A stretch of DNA of 63,543 nucleotides, the filler included, from Neolecta irregularis DAH-3 (lineage: Eukaryota), in the NCBI GenBank assembly GCA_001929475.1. It is 9 parts of 9 records of this genome, joined end to end, with 100 filler letters (N's around TTAATTAATTAA, not from the genome) between each part and the next. Parts side by side here need not be neighbours in the genome. Positions count along the whole stretch, not along the records: positions 24,476 to 45,037 come from LXFE01000264.1; 8 more parts are not named here. One strand, 5' to 3'. This document shows, piece after piece, positions 1,965 to 57,088 of the stretch (position 1 is the stretch's first letter; every line of letters begins with the position of its first letter). The translations under genes and the position numbers were made by a program. Below the pieces are notes generated by a model. It was given only the letters and a program-made list of their open reading frames with translations. It was not told where the DNA came from and did no database searches.

Positions 1965-2480
1965 GTTAAAAGCAAGATATATGTGCTAGGTAGACAGAGC
2001 AGATTCAGGTTTAGAGGAGACTGAGGGAAATAGACGATCGCGCCACTTCCGTCGGCATCAAGAAAGGCGGCGGTGGCGGTATACAATATTACTTTCCGAA
2101 AGTGGCGAATCGCCTGACTCTTGTTTGTTCCGATAAAATACTCCAATATCTTGCACCTTTTCTCTCTCTTTATTCCCATATTACTAGCCAATTTTCCCAT
2201 TGTAGAATGTTCAACGTAGATACGAGATCTCCCCCGGGCCGTTCTTGTGCCGTTCTTCTTTTTCTCCGGGTTCTCGGACCGGTTTTTATGGCGCCAATAC
2301 ACTGGAAATATATGCATTGGAATCCTATATCTGAAAACTATTTTTACATATTCATTCAAGACATTGAGTCCAACGATGAATGTTGTATTGGACCGATAAA
2401 ACCGTTGGCCGACTATACACGTGTTGAAACGACTTTGCCCCTAGTGCATCACTCTTAAGGATGATAATAAAGCCATTTCA

Positions 2481-5400
2481 ATGGGTTTGACCCCCGAAGA
2501 TGAACGAGATTATCAGGACAGTCTCAATGACTATTTGGAAGCGGAGAATGGCGAACAAATGGGCGAAACTGAACAAGACGAATTATTGTTCTCGCAACTT
2601 GCGGTTGATCAAGATCTTATCCTAGAGTACCTAAAAGACGCCAAGACCAAAGATAAACTCGAACGTAAGCAACTTGAAAATTCTCAAGATCACGAAGCTT
2701 TAATTCAGGAGGGATCAGAAAAAGATCTCGACGACCAAGGAAGCACCGGACGCGACCCCTCCATTGTCGATAGCCTAATTACAGATGACAATACCGTATC
2801 CCGAAGAGTATAGCTTAATTTTTCATTATATCTAAAGTTTCAGGCNNNNNNNNNNCTACAGATGACAATACCGTATCCCGAAGAGTATAGCTTAATTTTT
2901 CATTATATCTAAAGTTTCAGGCTTCTATCGCATCTGAAACCCTTTCAATTGCTTCCAGCTCCTACTCAGAAGTTACATCTTTGACACCGTCCCGTTCCTT
3001 GTTATCCCCATTTCGAAACCTTGATTCCGCAAGACAAAATCGGCGGTTAACATCTCTCACTGCTCCTCTCTCTCAATCACCTTCTCTGTCCGTGTTTCAT
3101 TCGCGCGCTTCCTCCGTTTCGAATTTCAACGATGCTTCCAGTTCAGAAGGACTTTCAAATCCCCGAGATGTTATCAGATGGAAAAGACTTAAACGGATAT
3201 CAGCTCGCCTCTATTCGGATGCCGGAAAACGTAACTGGGGAAACCCTACTGCGTTTTGCGTAAGACTGCCAATAACAATGATGGACTGAGACATAGGTTT
3301 CTGGGGTAATTGCCGTGGGGACAAGTAAAGGTCTAGTCCTGCTATTCGACTATCACCAAACTCTGAGATCTATTATGGGACCCGGGAGTAAAGGTGGTAT
3401 TCTTTCATTTACTCAAAAGCTTATGATATAGCCGTTGAAAGTGGTGCTGTTACGTCCATTACTGTCTCAGCAGACCATGCATATATTGCGACAGGTCATG
3501 CTCGCGGATCTATTTTCCTATGGGATCTCTCAAAGTCAGCTCAGCCGGCACGTTCGATACCTGCACTTTCTTCTGAAGAAATCAGACAGGCTAAGGCGTC
3601 TGGTCATCGAGATGGAAATGTAATCATAGACACTGGATTCATCGGGGCTAGTCATAGTCATCTGGTTTCTTTTGATGATCACGGGATGGGATTCGACCAT
3701 CTTTTCAGCAGGAAAATGATCGTCACGTCCGTCCATAGCACTCGTATCATCGGACGACAGTTGGGGTTGAACGGGGAGACGTTCTATGGCCGCAGTTCGC
3801 CATTGATGGCATTCTCTCCGCTTCCTCTGGGCTCTGCCTCACATTTTTCAGATATGTTGGGCATAGTTGCGATGGTTACTCTCTCACGAGTATCTCTCTT
3901 CTTTCTATATTATACTGATAGATTCTCAGCTGATAATTATATCAACTGTTCCTGTCCCCCGAACTCAGTTCAAGTTCTCAAGGCCGAGGCATTCGCCGGA
4001 CCCGTCCGATATAGCAGAAGGGGCTTGCCTCGCTTGGTATCCGTCAGTAAAGTATCGTGTGCCCGGAAACTCATCTCTTTCTGAATTGTCCTCTAAGCCT
4101 GCCTTGGCTTTTGCATGGGATAAGTATCTTGCTATCCTACATATCATGGATACAGAACAACCGCCTAGCGAAGACAAGTCTGATATCCCTGCAGTAGCAT
4201 TCGCTGTCCGAGTAGAAAGGCATGTCGATGAGCCTATTGTTGCCATTAAATGGTTCACACACGAGGTTGACAGTTGCCAATATTGTTGCTTAATGATTTA
4301 GATCTTGTTACTCTTGACCAAGACTCATAGAGTATTGATTCTTGAGGCCGCTAGTTTAGATATTACCGATTCTGGCGACATCGTTTCGAAAAGTCTTTTG
4401 CATTTCAATTACTTGACTTCAAGCCTGAAGATTGACCAAAATCTCGACGTGACGCCGGCTACATCGGATATGTTTCATCAAACTCTCCATACTTACAAGA
4501 ATAAGATATTCATGTTGGTATATTCAATCTCAACATTGGCCGCTTACCCGCAGTGTTCAACAGGCATTATACTCGGAATGTTGTCTACATGGGCTGATCG
4601 AGTCTTGGGATTTGTCGACCGTTCAGATTTCATTGAAGCAATCCGTCTTTGTACTTCTTATTACGCTGGCGGCCGGAGTCTAGTAACTCTCGGACTTCCA
4701 ATTGATGAACAACAACGTAAACATGCGATTGAAGATAAAATTCTCGATTTCATGCTTGCTTCTCTTCGCTATACGTTCAAGAAAGAAACGAATGCCAGGT
4801 CAGACCCACTAAATCTTCACAGAAATGTTGCATCTCTGAAAGGAGAATTAACCTCCGTTTGCTTCGAGGCCTGTATTTGCATGGACAACATGGCCTTCTT
4901 ATTTGACCAGATTTACGAATTTTATGAAGAGGAGGCAGACAAGGTCATATTTCTTGAAGCCCTCGAAAATTACATCACTAGTTTCAAAATTCGGAAAATG
5001 CCTCCTACGGTCGTGAAAGATTTCATCGAGTTATATTGTTCGCGGAAGCAATTCGGGTTACTGGAGCGTGTCATATGCCATATCGATGCTCTTTCACTAG
5101 ATATTAACCAAGTCATCACGCTCTGCAAGAACAATAATCTATTTGACCCTCAAATTTACATTTGGAACGAGGCCTTGGAGGATTATATCGCTCCTATGAT
5201 TGAGTTTGTTCAACTCGCAAGAGATCTCCTTATTTCTGCTGCAGACTCTGAACAGTTACCAGAAGATATCAGGTTATCGCAAGTTACGAGGCTTTTCCCC
5301 TATTTATCATACATCCTCACTGGTCGGATATATCCCACTGGAGAGGTGAAGGACGAACTGAAAGCCAATGGCGGTAAGAACGCGCTCTATCATTTCCTAT

Positions 5401-7418
5401 TCTCAGGAAGGACGCTCATATGGCCTCCCAAGGGTGGCGTCTTGATTACAACTACGATCAACGATGAACCTGAACTCACATTCCCTTATTTACGTCTTTT
5501 TCTCCGATTGGACACGCCAACATTTCTTCAAGCTATGGACGAAGCACTTGAAGATCCATATCTCAACGGCCAAGAGGAATTATCCTCCAGCGATTATCCC
5601 GAGACAGCGCATCCCTTTAATATCAATGTGAATCGACAGTTTATCGTGAATATTTTAATGGAAGTCATGAGCATTGGATTTTCTCAAGAAGACCTTTTAT
5701 TCCTTTATATCTTCATTGCGAGAAATGTTCCAAAATATCCTCAGTTCATTATGCTATCGGGATCCACCCTTGAACATATTCTCGCTGAACTATGCTCATT
5801 CAAAGATCCAGAATTGGCAGAAGAATGCCAACTGTCAGTCGAATACCTTTTATCGACTTTCAAGCCATTCGACACCGAACATATTATTGAGTTGTACCAA
5901 GAAGCTAAATTTTGGAGAGTCTTGCGTTCGGCATATCGGACTGATAAAAAATACGACAAGATGCTATTGGCCTACTTTGACGATCCGGATGCAAGGTCTA
6001 ATACTCTCGTTGCCTTGGAAGACTTATTACGGCCGAGTAATGAACTGAACACTAAACAATTGAGTAAGGTCAGAGATGTTGTCTTGCAAAAGTGTTTGGA
6101 CTTTGTGCAACTTGATCCCCGTCGATTTTCTCGTATCGTTGAAGAGAACTTGTGCGATATACACCCAGTTATCATTGAGAAGCTGAAAGATTATCCGGAA
6201 ATGCAATTTCAGTACCTGGACTATTTACTTGGTCTTGAGCAATCGCCGGAAGATGGGAAGGGAAGCGCGACAACCTGGATCACCAAAGACTTCAGGCATC
6301 TTTATATTAAGCTCAGTGCTAGATTTAGACCTTTGCAAGTCAAAGCGTATCTCGAGTCACAATCCTCCCAAAACTACCAGGAAGAGATTGTCATATCAAT
6401 CCTGGGGGAATATGATATACTTGATGCGATGGTCTCTATCCTCTGTCGCAAGGGTTTGCACGGCGAGGCAATGGACCTGATTCTGGATCGTTTGCAGTCG
6501 TGTACAGAACTGATCTGGTTTCTGTTGAACGACATGAAGGCAGCCAATAGGTTTCCCCCAGAATTTGATCAACTCAAATCACAAATTCACACCTTTCAGC
6601 AAGACGTATTGATTGGGCGTTCAATGTGCGAAGATTTGTCAAAGCTGCCATCGGTTCGACCGAGTAAAATTCGTGGCGGAAAAGAATTAAATCCAATTGA
6701 AATGAATTGGTTAAAACTAATATCGAATGTATCTTCATCAATCCGCAAAATAGCCACAGTCTCTGAATCTGTAATTGCTCCGCTCGATATTACGCTGCAT
6801 CAGTCTCTGTCGAAGAGCGGCAACCTCCTAGTGCAAGACCTATTCACGTCTTTACTAAGTGTAACATCGTCCTCATCATTATCTGTAAATTTCATCAAAG
6901 TTCTTGGAGCATTTCTGAAGCAGATATCAGAGGAATCGCCACGTCTGGAAGATGTTCGAGAGACATTATCGAATATATTTGATGCGTATATTTATGAACC
7001 GCAGATTCTTTCGTTGGCATTACAGATTATTGACAGGGACATCTTTTTGGAGGTAGATGACTCGATTCAGAAACGAAGGAGAGGATGGAGACCATCGGGA
7101 TTCGAATGTGATAGATGCGGCGCCAAAATCTGGGGAACCGGGGTCATTCGAAACATTTACGAGGCTTGGGATACGAAAATGTTGGCTGATATAATTCAAA
7201 GAACGAAATCAAGGGAAGCTGAGAATAAGAGCTTGTCTGCCGGTAAAAGTAAGCAAAATTTGGAGGATTTACCTTTGAATGTTGTTGCCGGCGAAGCTAA
7301 TGCAGCGGACTTGATTGTATTTGCATGCGGACATTGTTACCACCGCGCGCATTTCTCGGATCAGGAATTAAATGGCATGTTAATTTGTGATATTTGCAGG
7401 GAGAAGGAATCCAAGTAG
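2481..7418 (+). CDS. VPS8: CORVET complex subunit Vps8, multi-exon, small gap at 2846-2855
   Basis: Beta-propeller-like N-terminus (IAVGTSKGLVLLFDYHQ), long helical region with LDINQVITLCKNNNLFD..IYIWN, C-terminal RING-like CDRC...CGHCYH...CDIC. Confidence 0.9.
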
Positions 7419-19074: not shown

Positions 19075-19390
19075 CAGCTGATCCCCCAGGTTTTCAATTC
19101 TATCAACCGGGAAAGGGATGATCCGGTCTTTGGTCAAGTAATTACCAACTCTAAACGGGTTCCCATTTCCGAACTCACGGACGATTTTCTCAAGGAGGAT
19201 TGGCTAGACGATATTGAAGAGGGTNNNNNNNNNNTCCACAGTCTCTGAATCTGTAATCGCTCCGCTCGATATTACCCTGCATCAGTCTCTGTCGAAGAGC
19301 GGCAACCTCCTAGTGCAAGACCTTTTCACGTCTTTACTAAGTGTAACATCGTCCTCATCATTATCTGTAAATTTCATCAAAGTTCTTGGA
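19075..19390 (+). other. Mis-scaffolded duplicate fragments: copy of ~18915-19064 and copy of VPS8 ~6755-6909
   Basis: Near-identical to other parts of the window, separated by 10-N gaps, with a few synonymous differences. Confidence 0.9.
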
Positions 19391-40658: not shown

Positions 40659-43600
40659 CTAAACTCCTCCTCCGATCTCCTCCACTTTATCAAGTAATCG
40701 GCGTAGTCCTCTAGGAATAACATCTTTCACAGCCTGTCTTTCTAGAGGAGCAGGAGGAGGCGGTGCTGGTAAGGAATAAACATTCGTCCGCCGGGGTTTC
40801 TTTTCAACCAAAACAGGACTTTGCATCATTCGTTTCCGTTTACGTTCGAGGGTGAGTTGACGTGCATACCATGGCGAGGGGTCAATGCTGATATCGTTGA
40901 CAAGTTTCTCCAACGCAGGTGTGAGATTTGTGTCTTGAACTGTCTGGATTTGCAAGACGTGTAGATTTGTTATTGAAGATTGTGAGGAAGCGAACAAGGA
41001 AGCGAAATCGAGTGACTGTGAGATCTGGATGTTAGAATTCTACCAATTGACTGTAACGTACGTCAATCCGATAGTCAGCGTTCTTCATCCACTGAATGAC
41101 AAGCACCGAAAACTTGAATCTAGAAGAATTGGAAACTTCTTTAATGACTTGGTGAAATCGATCCTTCTCAATATCCCAATCTCCAACGTCCACAGAACAA
41201 GAAAACACTACGGCACCGACATTTTCCAATGCAAACAACGTGTCACTTTCCGATACCGAAACTTCAAAGTTACCATGATCCCCCTTGTACAGCCGACAAT
41301 CCTCCTGTGAATCCTCCAAAAACCCCACTTTTGACCGCAGCCAGACCGCAATAGGATGTTCTTCATCCAGATAGGTCACGAGCAACTTCCACGTTCCCAT
41401 TCTCTTTTCAATTTCGAAATATGCATTCACAGTGCCTAGAAAGAGTTTCTGAAGATCAATGGGTTTCCAAAGAGTCGTAGTCTGTTCATTCGCCTAACCA
41501 AGATCAATTTTTGAACAAACCGGAACAGTCTCGTAAAAATATATACCTCGAGAAGAATTTTCGATAAATCACCCGCGATGATGCCCAGATTGTTATGACG
41601 AGTATTCGTCAAACTAGCGACACCCATATCTCTTACTGCTTCCTCGAATTTCCGCCTTTTTCGTTCTCGGTCGAGTTGAATGCGTTTCCGTTCGACAGCT
41701 GCGAGTTTCGCTTGATGTGCTAGCGTCGAGAAGCGATGTAGGACATGTCGCCGGAGATGATTTGAGTAAAAAATAGAGGCGATGGCTGTTGCTGTGGTTT
41801 CCAAAATACATTCCTCGACGAATGATTCGATGATCTGGTTGGATAAAATATCGATCAACTCTCTTTTTTGTTTCTCGGCGAGAGCGTGGGCTTCCGCTGC
41901 TTTTTGGGCAGAGAGAAGGGATTGGAAGGGAAGTGGGGTGACTGGAATATCGCGTTTCTGTTTGAGAGCTGGGGATTGTGTTGGTGTGCTTCCTACTGAA
42001 GGAGGTGGTGATGGAATAACCTCTATTTGAAGGGATGATGGAGGTTTCGGAGCTCTGAAGGAAAAGGCTTGTTTATTTGTTGAGAGATTTGGCTGAAATG
42101 CTGGTATAGACTGAACATGTGAAAAGATTGGAGCGAATGAGGGAGTAGATTGAAATGAGGAAGACATTGGAGTAGGAATGTTTGACTTTAGGCTCGAAAA
42201 CGAACTTGCAAAGACGGCTGGTTGGGACGCTGTTGATACAGACAGATAATTCTTATCTAAACTCGATCTTTGCCTATTCGCAAAGTGTTTTGTCGAACCA
42301 GAAACGAAATTCGGTGTAGGACTTGAATTTGCCTTCTTTTGTAGCAAAAATGTATCCATGATGCTAGACTGTCGAGGAGTCTTTCCACTAGTTGAAGGCT
42401 GGTTGATCAGTTCCCTCAACTGTTTTCCGCCTCTCTTAACTTCAACCAGACATTTTGAAAAAGTCCGCGGAGGCGCAGGTTTATTGTGCGGCCAGGGGTC
42501 GACTTTATCCAATTTAACACCAACCGTTTGATCCGCAGTGACTTCCGAATTGACGTCGAAATGCTCGCAAAAGACAAGGGCTTCCTCTGGCGAATCAAAA
42601 GCGAGAATCCGGGCAAGATCCACCAGAGGATATGGTCCATATCGCTTCAAAAAGCACTTCTTCATAGCGACCAGTGCGCCCTTTCTGATATCGGGAAAAT
42701 GTTCTTCAAGAATACAGGAGAGCATATACGATGTCTGGTGATCCCTGACTAATTTGAAGAAGCGGGTGTATGAATTCATACAAGCTTCCGTGACCTCCAC
42801 CACGTTTTTTTCTGGTTTTCGAACGGTCCGTTGTGCAAAACCGTATAGCTTCAAGACATGTTGGACTTGGGGGGAGAGGATGATATTTCTGGGCAGAGTA
42901 TTAATTTTTACCAGAATGTCTCGATGTTGGAGATTGATTGCGATATTGTATGCTTGAAATTCGGGTTCATTTGGACTTTGGTATTCACCTCGCAGATCAT
43001 CGTAAAACGAAATCAACGACATTAGGGCTAGAGGGGTCAGCGCCCGTTGAATTGTGGTATACTCTTCTTCAATTCTTTGACTTCCATTTCGGCTTCAAAG
43101 TTTAGAGATCCGTGGAGGACGTGCAGAGCGATAATATGCAGCCTCGATATCCGTTCATAGCATTCGATTGATACATGATTTTTGATATTTTGAATACTGA
43201 AATCGTTTCGAATGGCTCGTGTTCGATCGCGCAAGAAGGAATGCGTATTCCGCAATGTGTCTTGGTCGACAGTAAATTTGTCAACCAGGTAGTCCAACGT
43301 CTTCTGTATTTTGTCAGTACATATGCAAATAAGAAGGGTACTCGAAGAACAATTGGAGGTCTGACATCGCTGGGTAGCTGAGGTTCGATGCCAGCAGCTG
43401 GTCTCACGAATCGTTTGACTGTAAGTTTTGGATCAACGTCTCCTGACACCGGATCGCGTTCCAAGCGATCGATAAAACGATCTTCTTCTCGTCTATAACG
43501 TTCGTATTCCGAACACATTTCCTGGCAGGTTCCGACCATGAAAACATTTTTCTGAGAAAGGGTCTGGCGATTCGAGTCATCTGTAATGAGACCCTTTCGA

Positions 43601-43772
43601 ATACAGTCGGCTCTTTCGAGCTCGCGAGCTTTGCGAAGCTAGGTGCCGTTTAGACTGATTCGTATAATAATGAGCATACTTGCTGTAGACGAACTGCGGC
43701 TTCTGATTCTTTGAACCGTTGTTTTCTGGCTGCTGCATCTGTGTTGAGGCCATTAGACGTGATACCGGCCAT
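40659..43772 (-). CDS. SAC3: Sac3/GANP-family mRNA export factor
   Basis: VGTCQEMCSEYER..RE, RPAAG..LPSDVRPP, FLRDRTRAIRNDFSIQ, YERISRLHI, NEPEFQAY. Confidence 0.9.
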
Positions 43773-43918
43773 GATATGGATGGCGTACACTACTAGATAG
43801 ACATGGGTACGGATTTGGAGTGTGGGATAATAGCACGTGCATTAAAAAGGACACATAAAATTACTATCTAGGAACTGGACATTAGCTATCGTTTCTAACA
43901 GAATGGAGGGTAGACAAA

Positions 43919-44000
43919 AACGTCAGAAGGAACAATTGGAATACTTTGTGATAATCACGGATGATCATGTTTAGCATAGAATAAGCAGTTCATCATGCAA
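43919..44000 (-). ncRNA. snR53: Box C/D snoRNA, snR53-like, with a second D-box guide
   Basis: C box ATGATGA (43996-43990); D' guide TTATTCTATGCTAA then AC-ATGA pairs with 18S TTAGCATGGAATAA; D guide TCCAATTGTTCCT pairs with 18S AGGAACAATTGGA; D box CTGA (43926-43923). Confidence 0.82.
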
Positions 44001-44080
44001 GAAGAAAGAAAAAACATACTTTGGAGACAAATTCGACCTGGAATGTAAGCAGCTGGACAAATAATACAAAGTAAAAGACA

Positions 44081-44158
44081 CCAATCAGGTAATCGAACCA
44101 TAAAGGTTAATCCCCATAGTTAATCGGAATTTGATAGTACTTAGTTACTCATCAGAGA
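44081..44158 (-). ncRNA. Box C/D snoRNA, candidate guide for the 18S 5' domain
   Basis: C box TGATGA (44154-44149), guide GTACTATCAAAT before D' CCGA, D box CTGA (44088-44085), flanking stem AAGACATC/GGTGTCTT. Confidence 0.75.
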
Positions 44159-44261
44159 TGTCTTGTCAAATAAAATAAAGACGTACCTGAGAAATCTGAA
44201 TTGTTCGCAAGACGTATCTACACCGGTCAGTAAATTCCCGGTACACAGAATATAAAACAGC

Positions 44262-44348
44262 GAGATCAGAAACGAACGTTTGGCTGTTCTTGGTCGATCG
44301 TCACACGCACAAGCATAGGACTGGGGCGACACAGATGTTCATCAATAA
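44262..44348 (-). ncRNA. snR67: Box C/D snoRNA, snR67-like
   Basis: C box TGATGA (44344-44339); TGTGTCGCCCCAG pairs with the 25S P-loop CTGGGGCGGCACA; C'-like GTGACGA; D box CTGA (44269-44266); D' degenerate. Confidence 0.78.
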
Positions 44349-44563
44349 GAAAGGAAAGAAAATAAACGTACCAGATGGAAACGCACCATATGGAAACGCA
44401 CCAGATGGAGGCGAATTGAGAAAATGGCCCTTTTTATCTGGAAATATTCGCCGCTAATTACAAATAGCCGCTAATTACTACAAACATCCCAATTTCTAGC
44501 TAATGAAGTCCTTTTGGCTCAGAAATCATCTGCTAATGATTCTGAGACAAATGAAGTTTATCT

Positions 44564-45037
<474 letters not shown>

Positions 45038-45305
45038 NNNNNNNNNNNNNNNNNNNNNNNNNNNNNNNNNNNNNNNNNNNNTTAATTAATTAANNNNNNN
45101 NNNNNNNNNNNNNNNNNNNNNNNNNNNNNNNNNNNNNAAAGGAATGTGTGTGATGGTGGAGTGGACAAACGCAAAGCGAAAATTGGCGGAAAAGCAGCCG
45201 CCGCCGGGATTCGAACAGAGTCGCAGTTAGCCACCAACCACCCGACAGCGGAGATTCAAACCCGCCAGATCTCCAGGACTGCCAGCTTCTCTAGTTTAAA
45301 TCGCC

Positions 45306-55784: not shown

Positions 55785-55884
55785 NNNNNNNNNNNNNNNN
55801 NNNNNNNNNNNNNNNNNNNNNNNNNNNNTTAATTAATTAANNNNNNNNNNNNNNNNNNNNNNNNNNNNNNNNNNNNNNNNNNNN

Positions 55885-56902
55885 ATGTCAAAGAGTAAAG
55901 TCAAGTACTCAGCCGCCAGCAGGATTTCTTTCATCATTACCAGTACCCGAATCCAAATTTGATGAAATCGCAATGGACTTCATTGGCCCAATGAAGGATT
56001 CAAAGGGATACAATGGGATGCTCGTAGTGACTGATCGACTTTCTGGTCTGGTAATAATCGAACCAATTAAAATGACGATATCGGCAGCCGAAGTGGCAAA
56101 ATGGCTTTGGAAAAATTGGTACTGTAGATATGGACTACCCAAGTCCATTGTTTCCGATCGAGACCCTAGGTTTACAGGACAATTGTGGAAAGAACTGCAT
56201 CGCATGATTGGAGTCAATCTAAAGATGAGTACGGCCTTTCACCCTGAAACGGATGGATCATCAGAGCGATCGAACAAAACAATTATACAGATACTCCGGA
56301 CTTGTGTAGATGAAACACAAGAGAATTGGTCAGACTTTGTTCGTTCAACGGAATTTTGCATTAATAACTCCCTTAACGATTCAACAGGATTTACACCATT
56401 CGAGTTGGTTTATGGTTGCAAGCCAAGAGTACTGCCCAGTATACTGCCAACAGATTCTAGCGCACCGAAGGCCCAAGAGATTGCGGAAAACATGAAGATT
56501 TATTTGGAAGTCGCAAGAGATAATTTAGTGATCGCAAAGGCTAAGCAAGCAATTCAGGCTAATAGGAGAAGAAGAGATCATATTAAATATGATATCGGCG
56601 ACAGAGTTCTGTTAAGCAGTGAAAATTTTCGGAAATCCATGGCAAAAGAAGGAAAATCGGCCAAGCTACTACCACGTTGGATCGGGCCCTATCGAGTTAT
56701 AGAAACCTGGCCAGATACTCATACCTATAAACTCGAATTGCCAGTAGAGATGAGTCTCCGTCACCCAGTTTTCCATGCTAAACTGCTGAAACCGTTTAAC
56801 GATAATGACTTGGAAGAATACCCAGACCGGGCATTCGAGCAACCAGTAATCCTAGAAAGTTATGAAGATGAGCATATTATTGAACAAATACTTATGCATC
56901 GC
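55885..56902 (+). mobile_element. Ty3/gypsy integrase and start of chromodomain; open frame on an isolated contig
   Basis: IAMDFIGP, IVSDRDPRF, STAFHPETDGSSERSN, PRWIGPYRV, HPVFHAKLLK, HIIEQILMHR. Confidence 0.95.
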
Positions 56903-57088
56903 NNNNNNNNNNNNNNNNNNNNNNNNNNNNNNNNNNNNNNNNNNNNTTAATTAATTAANNNNNNNNNNNNNNNNNNNNNNNNNNNNNNNNNNNNNNNNNN
57001 NNGTAAGAGATCTATGATAGTAATTGAAATAAGCTGAGACTGAGAGGAGAGACGGAGGCAGCTTGTGGAATGGCCTCCAATTGAACTC

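Follow-up and report, generated by a model that had tools for sequence, protein, structure and literature searches.

The window analyzed here, a stretch of 63,543 nt of DNA from Neolecta irregularis DAH-3, contains on its minus strand, between a PP4R3 gene on the opposite strand and the SAC3/GANP gene, three consecutive predicted introns of 154, 149 and 145 nt, with exons of 31 and 18 nt between them. As judged by inspection of the sequence, each intron has canonical splice signals and encloses one putative box C/D small nucleolar RNA (snoRNA), and it appears highly probable that all three are genuine intron-encoded snoRNAs. The first exon of the host (44372..44410, with a provisional 5' end) holds the ATG of a 25-codon open reading frame (ORF). 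It is followed by intron 1 (44218..44371; GTACGT donor, TACTGAC branch-like site, TAG acceptor), the 31-nt exon 2 (44187..44217), intron 2 (44038..44186; GTACGT donor, GCTTAC branch-like site, CAG acceptor, with a second possible CAG acceptor at 44053), the 18-nt exon 3 (44020..44037), intron 3 (43875..44019; GTATGT donor, GCTAAT branch-like site, CAG acceptor) and a last host exon or leader (43772..43874) that reaches the SAC3 start codon and in which three small upstream ORFs (4, 29 and 3 codons) are located. An earlier note on this DNA had described the three introns, and the intron and exon sizes are exactly as given there, as are the TGATGA and CTGA boxes in each of them; the intron boundaries are 44371–44218, 44186–44038 and 44019–43875.

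The three units share a regular geometry. In every intron, the C box is TGATGA and the D box CTGA, and the two span 79, 70 and 73 nt in snoRNAs 1, 2 and 3, respectively. The distance from the D box to the 3' splice site is uniform (48, 47 and 48 nt in introns 1–3), that from the 5' splice site to the C box is 27, 32 and 24 nt, and a branch-like motif is located 8–10 nt upstream of the YAG acceptor in all three units. A composite pattern was defined as TGATGA and CTGA 55–95 nt apart, with a GTAYGT donor 5–45 nt upstream and a YAG acceptor 30–60 nt downstream, and was searched for on both strands of the window. There are 14 TGATGA..CTGA candidates, and the three of these that possess both a donor and an acceptor are precisely the three adjacent units. 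In 200 first-order Markov randomizations, the composite pattern was found on average 0.03 times per window, with a maximum of 1 and at least one occurrence in 6 of the 200 sequences. None of the further C/D candidates in the window combines convincingly with a conserved D-guide target.

The size of these introns also seems to set them apart. A crude ORF-joining heuristic, used for an estimate of intron size, returned 55 donor sites, 23 of which lead to introns of 28–47 nt, the 41-nt intron of SAC3 among them; the other 32 joins measure 68–237 nt, are unverified and in many cases are probably false. The heuristic suggests that ordinary introns in this window are of ~28–47 nt, so the three snoRNA introns would be ~3–4 times the usual size. 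For the range of 35–50 nt previously proposed for most introns, this is a rough check only.

The putative guide elements were compared, by ungapped pairing, with eukaryotic ribosomal RNA (rRNA) loci. The first set comprises 109 metagenome loci around the ITS1 primer, which cover the small subunit (SSU), 5.8S and the large subunit (LSU) to ~1200 (L004 and L040 are confirmed by Rfam). The 3' part of the LSU is represented by loci from prokaryote assemblies: 33 of 47 matches to a P-loop pattern (loci L113–L159) have rRNA context and are fragments of eukaryotic LSU rRNA, among which L147, L155 and L151 are confirmed by Rfam as LSU rRNA at model positions ~2233–3401. Many of these fragments are found on very short, low-coverage contigs, so they represent contaminating eukaryotic rDNA in the genome records of bacteria and archaea. 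In L147 and L155, a 5S gene is additionally present on the other strand, an arrangement also seen in budding-yeast rDNA. The compared rRNA lies on either side of LSU positions ~1220–2230 (fungal reference). Three loci retrieved from viral contigs with the LR0R primer, one of which alone is an LSU start (103 nt), were not used. The yeast numbering of the targets (A796, A541, U122, ~U921) is assumed from the yeast sequence and primer coordinates, and the numbering within the loci supports it only roughly. Five of the six guide elements form duplexes of 12–15 bp with eukaryotic rRNA in which the target is opposite the fifth nucleotide from the D or D' box. The rRNA-complementary elements claimed for each intron are thus present in register, except for the D element of snoRNA 1, which has no target.

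The first snoRNA (44264..44349) is snR67/U31-like, with the C box at 44344–44339, a D' box CCTA at 44319–44316 and the D box at 44269–44266. Its D' guide (44333–44320) forms a 15-bp duplex, with two G-U pairs, with the LSU P-loop sequence GGCTGGGGCGGCACA, in which the fifth position is the second G of GGGG. This snoRNA is predicted to guide 2'-O-methylation of the P-loop G that is equivalent to yeast G2619. The best covariance-model match is snR67, which at 19.8 bits (E 0.18 in a scan of 901 nt) stays below the gathering score of 55, and the plant U31b (snoU31b) model also scores 19.8 bits. In a permissive Rfam alignment, snoRNA 1 aligns with snR67 (RF01177; U31 clan CL00053, CD_26) end to end, with both guide regions and the boxes in register, including the guide core GUCGCCCCAG that is common to snR67 and U31b. 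For the D element, no convincing target was detected in the set of rRNA loci, the best pairing being 9 bp, and the D guide for Um2724, the second function of snR67 in Saccharomyces cerevisiae, is not found in snoRNA 1. An 11-bp match of this element to the 3' end of 5.8S, seen in one locus only and out of register, was rejected. In yeast, snR67 directs Gm2619 and Um2724, snR53 directs Am796 and snR41 directs Am541 (PMC5199042). The orphan D element of snoRNA 1 fits the distribution of these sites: across Dikarya, snR67 retains 25S-2619 as its D' target, whereas 2724 is its D target in Saccharomycotina only (PMC5824354).

The third snoRNA (43921..43999; C box 43995–43990, D' box ATGA 43968–43965, C' box TGATTA 43957–43952, D box 43926–43923) combines two guides. 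The D' guide (43984–43971), of the snR53 type, pairs over 14 bp with one G-U pair with 18S TTAGCATGGAATAA, with the A of TTAGC (position 792 in locus L062) as the target. The D guide (43941–43927), of the snR41-I/U62 type, forms a 15-bp duplex with two G-U pairs with 18S GAGGAACAATTGGAG, and targets the first A of GGAAC. Accordingly labeled by function, snoRNA 3 is predicted to guide 18S A796 through D', as snR53 does, and 18S A541 through D, as snR41/U62 does. Given that the D element carries a guide of the snR41/U62 type, this snoRNA is best described as a two-guide hybrid rather than as a plain snR53. A second target of the snR53 D' element in U6 snRNA has been reported outside Saccharomycetaceae; no U6 gene is detected in the window by Rfam at the gathering score. 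Only in its 3' half does snoRNA 3 align with snR41 (RF01218; U62 clan CL00068), there matching the 5' half of the model and sharing with it the C'-like UGAUUA, the guide core CCAAUUGUUCC and CUGA, at 20.5 bits versus a gathering score of 50. The second snR41 guide, for 18S Gm1126, is not found in snoRNA 3, where the other guide pairs with the A796 site. For 18S-796, snR53 uses a D' guide (PMC5824354).

The middle snoRNA (44075..44164; C box 44154–44149, D' box CCGA 44127–44124, C' box TGGGGA 44116–44111, D box 44088–44085) matches no Rfam family. Its D' guide (44140–44129) forms a perfect 12-bp duplex with 18S ATTTGATAGTAC, with the third U of AUUUG as the target (~18S U122; position 121 in locus L062), ~22 nt past the yeast A100 region. 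The D guide (44101–44090) forms a perfect 12-bp duplex with LSU TAATCGAACCAT and targets the U before CG (~LSU U921; position 910 in locus L004). These pairings predict that snoRNA 2 guides two uridines, one near 18S position 122 and one near LSU position 921 (yeast numbering). The 18S target would probably correspond to the position of human Um121, the site assigned to SNORD4A/B, although snoRNA 2 has no sequence match to any Rfam family. Human 18S rRNA contains both Um116 and Um121 (PMC8336889), whereas the yeast sites listed in PMC5199042 include no ribose methylation between 18S Am100 and Cm414, nor between 25S Gm908 and Am1133. By the numbering used here, Neurospora CD39 (PMC2780460) is directed at an A that precedes the LSU site of snoRNA 2 by five nucleotides and is thus a different nucleotide. 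A literature search for Um920, Um921, Um922, Um929, Um930 and Um1626 retrieved no paper, a search for a fission-yeast rRNA methylation map retrieved reviews and yeast or human papers only, and PMC5597630 contains nothing on the sites.

The significance of these pairings was assessed with random 20-mers from the window. Against 7,124 nt of rRNA, 49 of 3,000 such 20-mers scored at least 12, 8 scored at least 13.5 and 1 scored at least 14. This control favors the guides because the reference loci were picked after it had been seen that the motifs occur there. A less biased test uses conservation as the filter, namely the number of loci, among 142, that reach a duplex score of at least 12. By this measure, the D guide of snoRNA 2 is matched in 28 loci, the D' guide of snoRNA 3 in 11 and its D guide in 5, and among 2,000 controls, at least 5 loci were reached by 27, at least 10 by 12 and at least 20 by 7. 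Furthermore, the LSU 12-mer of the snoRNA 2 D guide is present in 26 of the 31 loci with the upstream anchor. The 12-nt 18S core GGAACAATTGGA of the snoRNA 3 D guide is present in 3 of the 24 loci with the downstream anchor, this rarity being due to differences at that 18S site in other eukaryote groups, and the 18S-122 12-mer of the snoRNA 2 D' guide is present in 1 of the 5 loci with an anchor.

The joined exons contain a single 25-codon ORF, which starts in exon 1, ends in exon 4 and is the longest beginning in exons 1–3, reproducing the ORF of the earlier note. Since the spliced exons would carry just this ORF, the host is most likely a dedicated non-coding, UHG-like transcript. A possible promoter of this transcript lies at 44450..44478 on the minus strand, just upstream of the presumed host start in the spacer that separates the host from the divergent PP4R3 gene, and consists of two copies of GTAATTAGCGGC spaced by 5 nt, followed by an A-rich, TATA-like ATAAAAAG stretch at ~44437–44430. 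The two copies are the only matches to GTAATTAGCGGC in the window (mean of 0.13 in shuffles), and the pair may be a promoter element of the host. Exon 1 and the first donor are spanned by 3.1 copies of a 15-nt repeat (44364..44409, minus strand; TRF score 78, 90% matches; plus-strand consensus AAACGCACCAGATGG). Because this repeat offers three GTRCGT donor candidates in register (GTGCGT at 44401, GTGCGT at 44386 and GTACGT at 44371), intron 1 may have alternative 5' splice sites.

For the cluster as a whole, we lean on balance toward the interpretation that these are three intronic C/D snoRNAs in a separate non-coding host, the counterpart of the snR67-snR53 polycistron of S. cerevisiae (bioRxiv 10.1101/352906). 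That source lists snR67 and snR53 as a polycistron, in agreement with the co-transcribed pair on which the earlier note had relied. As in the yeast unit, the snR67-type snoRNA comes first and the snR53-type snoRNA last in the Neolecta cluster, and the LSU P-loop G and 18S A796 are the predicted targets. The units also differ in several respects. In Neolecta, each snoRNA is placed in an intron, whereas the yeast unit is intron-less; a third snoRNA lies between the two; there is no guide for U2724, unlike in yeast snR67; and the last snoRNA has an additional guide for A541, which in yeast resides in snR41. The proposal of an intronic form of the snR67-snR53 cluster with a third member thus holds with respect to the guides and their order, but snoRNA 3 turns out to be a hybrid and lacks a match to the snR53 model.

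Several observations weigh against this interpretation. No Rfam family reaches the gathering score anywhere in the window, and the covariance-model check proposed for the cluster accordingly gave sub-threshold alignments only; homology therefore rests on guide function and gene order. No family was matched by snoRNA 2, and for snR53 (RF00338; CD_11) the function of the D' guide is shared but no match to the model was obtained at E up to 10 in scans of 901 nt and 95 nt. Internal D' and C' boxes, positioned from the guide register and the Rfam alignments, are degenerate candidates only, with D' boxes CCTA, CCGA and ATGA in snoRNAs 1, 2 and 3 and C' boxes TGGGGA and TGATTA in snoRNAs 2 and 3. The folds of snoRNAs 1 and 3 are no better than those of shuffled sequences and show no clear terminal stem; the 8-bp terminal stem of snoRNA 2, in turn, speaks for the interpretation. 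The rRNA used for comparison comes from metagenome and contaminant contigs of unassigned eukaryotic origin and not from Neolecta. If each sequence is given its highest score anywhere in the 264 kb of the 142 loci, spacers included, 661 of 2,000 controls reach 12 and 98 reach 14; the guides are not significant by this measure, which has no discriminating power. The D' guide of snoRNA 2 is matched in 2 of the 142 loci and passes the post-hoc test alone. The count for the D' guide of snoRNA 1, 34 of 142, is circular because 33 of the 142 loci were retrieved with a pattern derived from that very guide, which therefore stands on the Rfam alignments and the literature. Finally, the 104-nt gap between the last intron and the SAC3 ATG leaves little room for a terminator and a promoter.

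This last point leads to the alternative that the snoRNAs are real and intronic but that their host is SAC3/GANP itself, in which case they would be processed from a long 5' leader of the SAC3 pre-mRNA or from a non-productive long-leader isoform. The SAC3/GANP gene (41436..43771, minus strand; PF03399 with E 5e-36 and 2e-16, PF12209), the first intron of which is 41 nt long (43679–43639), has its ATG at 43771, on the same strand as the snoRNAs and just 104 nt past the last 3' splice site, and neither a separate terminator nor a separate promoter is identifiable in the gap. Intronic snoRNAs in coding hosts are, moreover, common in fungi, and in Neurospora 45 of 55 C/D snoRNAs are located in introns of coding or non-coding hosts (PMC2780460). 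On the other hand, read-through into SAC3 would yield a leader with four upstream ATGs that open ORFs of 25, 4, 29 and 3 codons, and the 29-codon ORF runs out of frame across the SAC3 start, where it should interfere with SAC3 translation; besides, the homologous Neurospora clusters reside in non-coding, UHG-like hosts (PMC2780460). The upstream ATGs and the overlapping ORF are the reason to favor a separate non-coding host that would end before SAC3, and the shortness of the gap is the reason that a SAC3 leader retains a substantial minority share of the probability. The non-coding nature of the host, as claimed in the earlier note, is accordingly compatible with the ORF of at most 25 codons but qualified by the proximity of SAC3, of which the introns may be a part of the 5' leader.

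Under the favored interpretation of three intronic snoRNAs in a separate non-coding host, a short transcript of RNA polymerase II (Pol II) would start near 44400–44440 on the minus strand and carry the three box C/D snoRNAs in successive introns, with one snoRNA per intron. Core proteins of the small nucleolar ribonucleoprotein (snoRNP) would assemble on the C/D motif of the pre-RNA; splicing and debranching of the introns would follow, and exonucleases would trim each intron to a protected snoRNA of 75–90 nt. Splicing, debranching and trimming constitute the established pathway for intronic snoRNAs. The sequence itself shows the boxes, splice signals, geometry and complementarity to eukaryotic rRNA, from which transcription, splicing, processing, the methylations and an end of the host before SAC3 are inferred. 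In S. cerevisiae, snR67 and snR53 are instead released by RNase III-type cleavage of a polycistronic precursor, followed by trimming. If the Neolecta snoRNAs were released in the same manner, the splice-like signals would be fortuitous, and the non-canonical branch site GCTTAC of intron 2 would be compatible with this, as is the existence of the yeast cluster (bioRxiv 10.1101/352906) itself. Such a route is nevertheless improbable, given that in all three units GTAYGT is found 24–32 nt before the C box and YAG 47–48 nt after the D box, an arrangement expected by chance ~0.03 times per window, and that no extended stem-loops appear between the snoRNAs in the folds. It is still less probable, in fact very improbable, that these are chance motifs in an intergenic spacer with neither functional snoRNAs nor a host transcript: although no Rfam match attains the gathering score and the guides are not significant in the maximum-score test over 264 kb, such an explanation would have to accommodate three adjacent composite matches versus 0.03 expected, five guides in the correct register on conserved rRNA, three of whose sites are known methylation sites of the expected families, and a gene order that agrees with a known cluster.

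The closest parallel to the proposed arrangement is found in Neurospora crassa, where intronic C/D clusters with one snoRNA per intron, in UHG-like non-coding hosts checked by RT-PCR, correspond to yeast polycistrons (Liu et al., 2009; PMC2780460). The occurrence of intronic snoRNA clusters in non-coding fungal hosts, which the earlier note had invoked, is thus documented, at least for Neurospora. By analogy with these clusters, the Neolecta unit has one snoRNA per intron, tiny exons and, in the spliced host, short ORFs only, although the host ORF is of 25 codons, compared with 159–267 bp in Neurospora, and the snoRNA introns of Neolecta are of ~150 nt in a genome whose other introns usually measure ~30–47 nt. 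Guide halves separate and recombine among fungal snoRNAs: in Neurospora, CD11 has the snR53 D' guide and CD13 the D guide for 18S-Am538 (snR41-I/U62) (PMC2780460). Unlike CD11 and CD13, the Neolecta cluster joins the snR53-type and snR41-I-type guides in one snoRNA. The cluster is, then, an unannotated example of an ordinary kind of snoRNA gene cluster, the Neurospora type, that is known from other fungi.

The analysis adds three snoRNA genes that are invisible to ORF-based annotation, in an ascomycete without a close sequenced relative. If the counterpart relationship is true, the snR67...snR53 linkage would be older than the budding yeasts and originally intronic, guide halves would move between snoRNAs, here those of snR53 and snR41-I, and perhaps two rRNA methylation sites would be missing from the yeast map. 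More tentatively, it is possible that snoRNA 2 founds an undescribed family of fungal C/D snoRNAs for two U methylations that S. cerevisiae lacks, one in 18S at what we take to be the position of human Um121 and one in LSU 14 nt after Gm908, and that snoRNA 3, in a deep-branching ascomycete, is a natural fusion between a guide half of snR53 and one of snR41, with the unit perhaps forming the 5' leader of SAC3. In the latter case, snoRNA output would be tied to the expression of an mRNA export factor. Since all of this fits established ideas on fungal snoRNA evolution, it refines the annotation and opens no new question.

Some further features of the window deserve mention. A weak match to SNORA32 at 44379–44492 (20.6 bits versus 60, E 1.7) was rejected because the aligned 3' end has no ACA box. 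An identical 20-nt string is located upstream of CTGA at 6800–6898 and 19282–19380 on the minus strand, in each case with TGATGA 80–99 nt earlier; no conserved rRNA site pairs with it at a score of at least 12, and its presence at both places points to a short repeated segment. The plus strand contains a 100-codon open frame (44672–44974) that is located between the snoRNA host and PP4R3, ends near a scaffold gap and has a weak, sub-threshold match to the U5-snRNA-binding domain of Prp8 (27.1 bits versus 33), which could be a fragment or a chance match. Runs of N, 23 in all, each of 10 or 44 nt and often paired, are distributed across 2846–60196, and the window was for this reason regarded as a gapped scaffold; the runs nearest to the cluster are at 45038–45081 and 45094–45137, and none lies inside 43700–44700. 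The window also encodes typical genes of fungi, namely Vps8 with a fungal RING, ArgJ and ORC2, along with an integrase of a Tf2/Ty3-type retrotransposon (55841–56947, plus strand; rve and Tf2-1 SH3 domains) that has scaffold gaps on its flanks. The best named homologs of ArgJ show only ~60% identity and are scattered across Pezizomycetes, Saitoella and Lipomyces, which indicates an ascomycete with no close sequenced relative in the collection searched.

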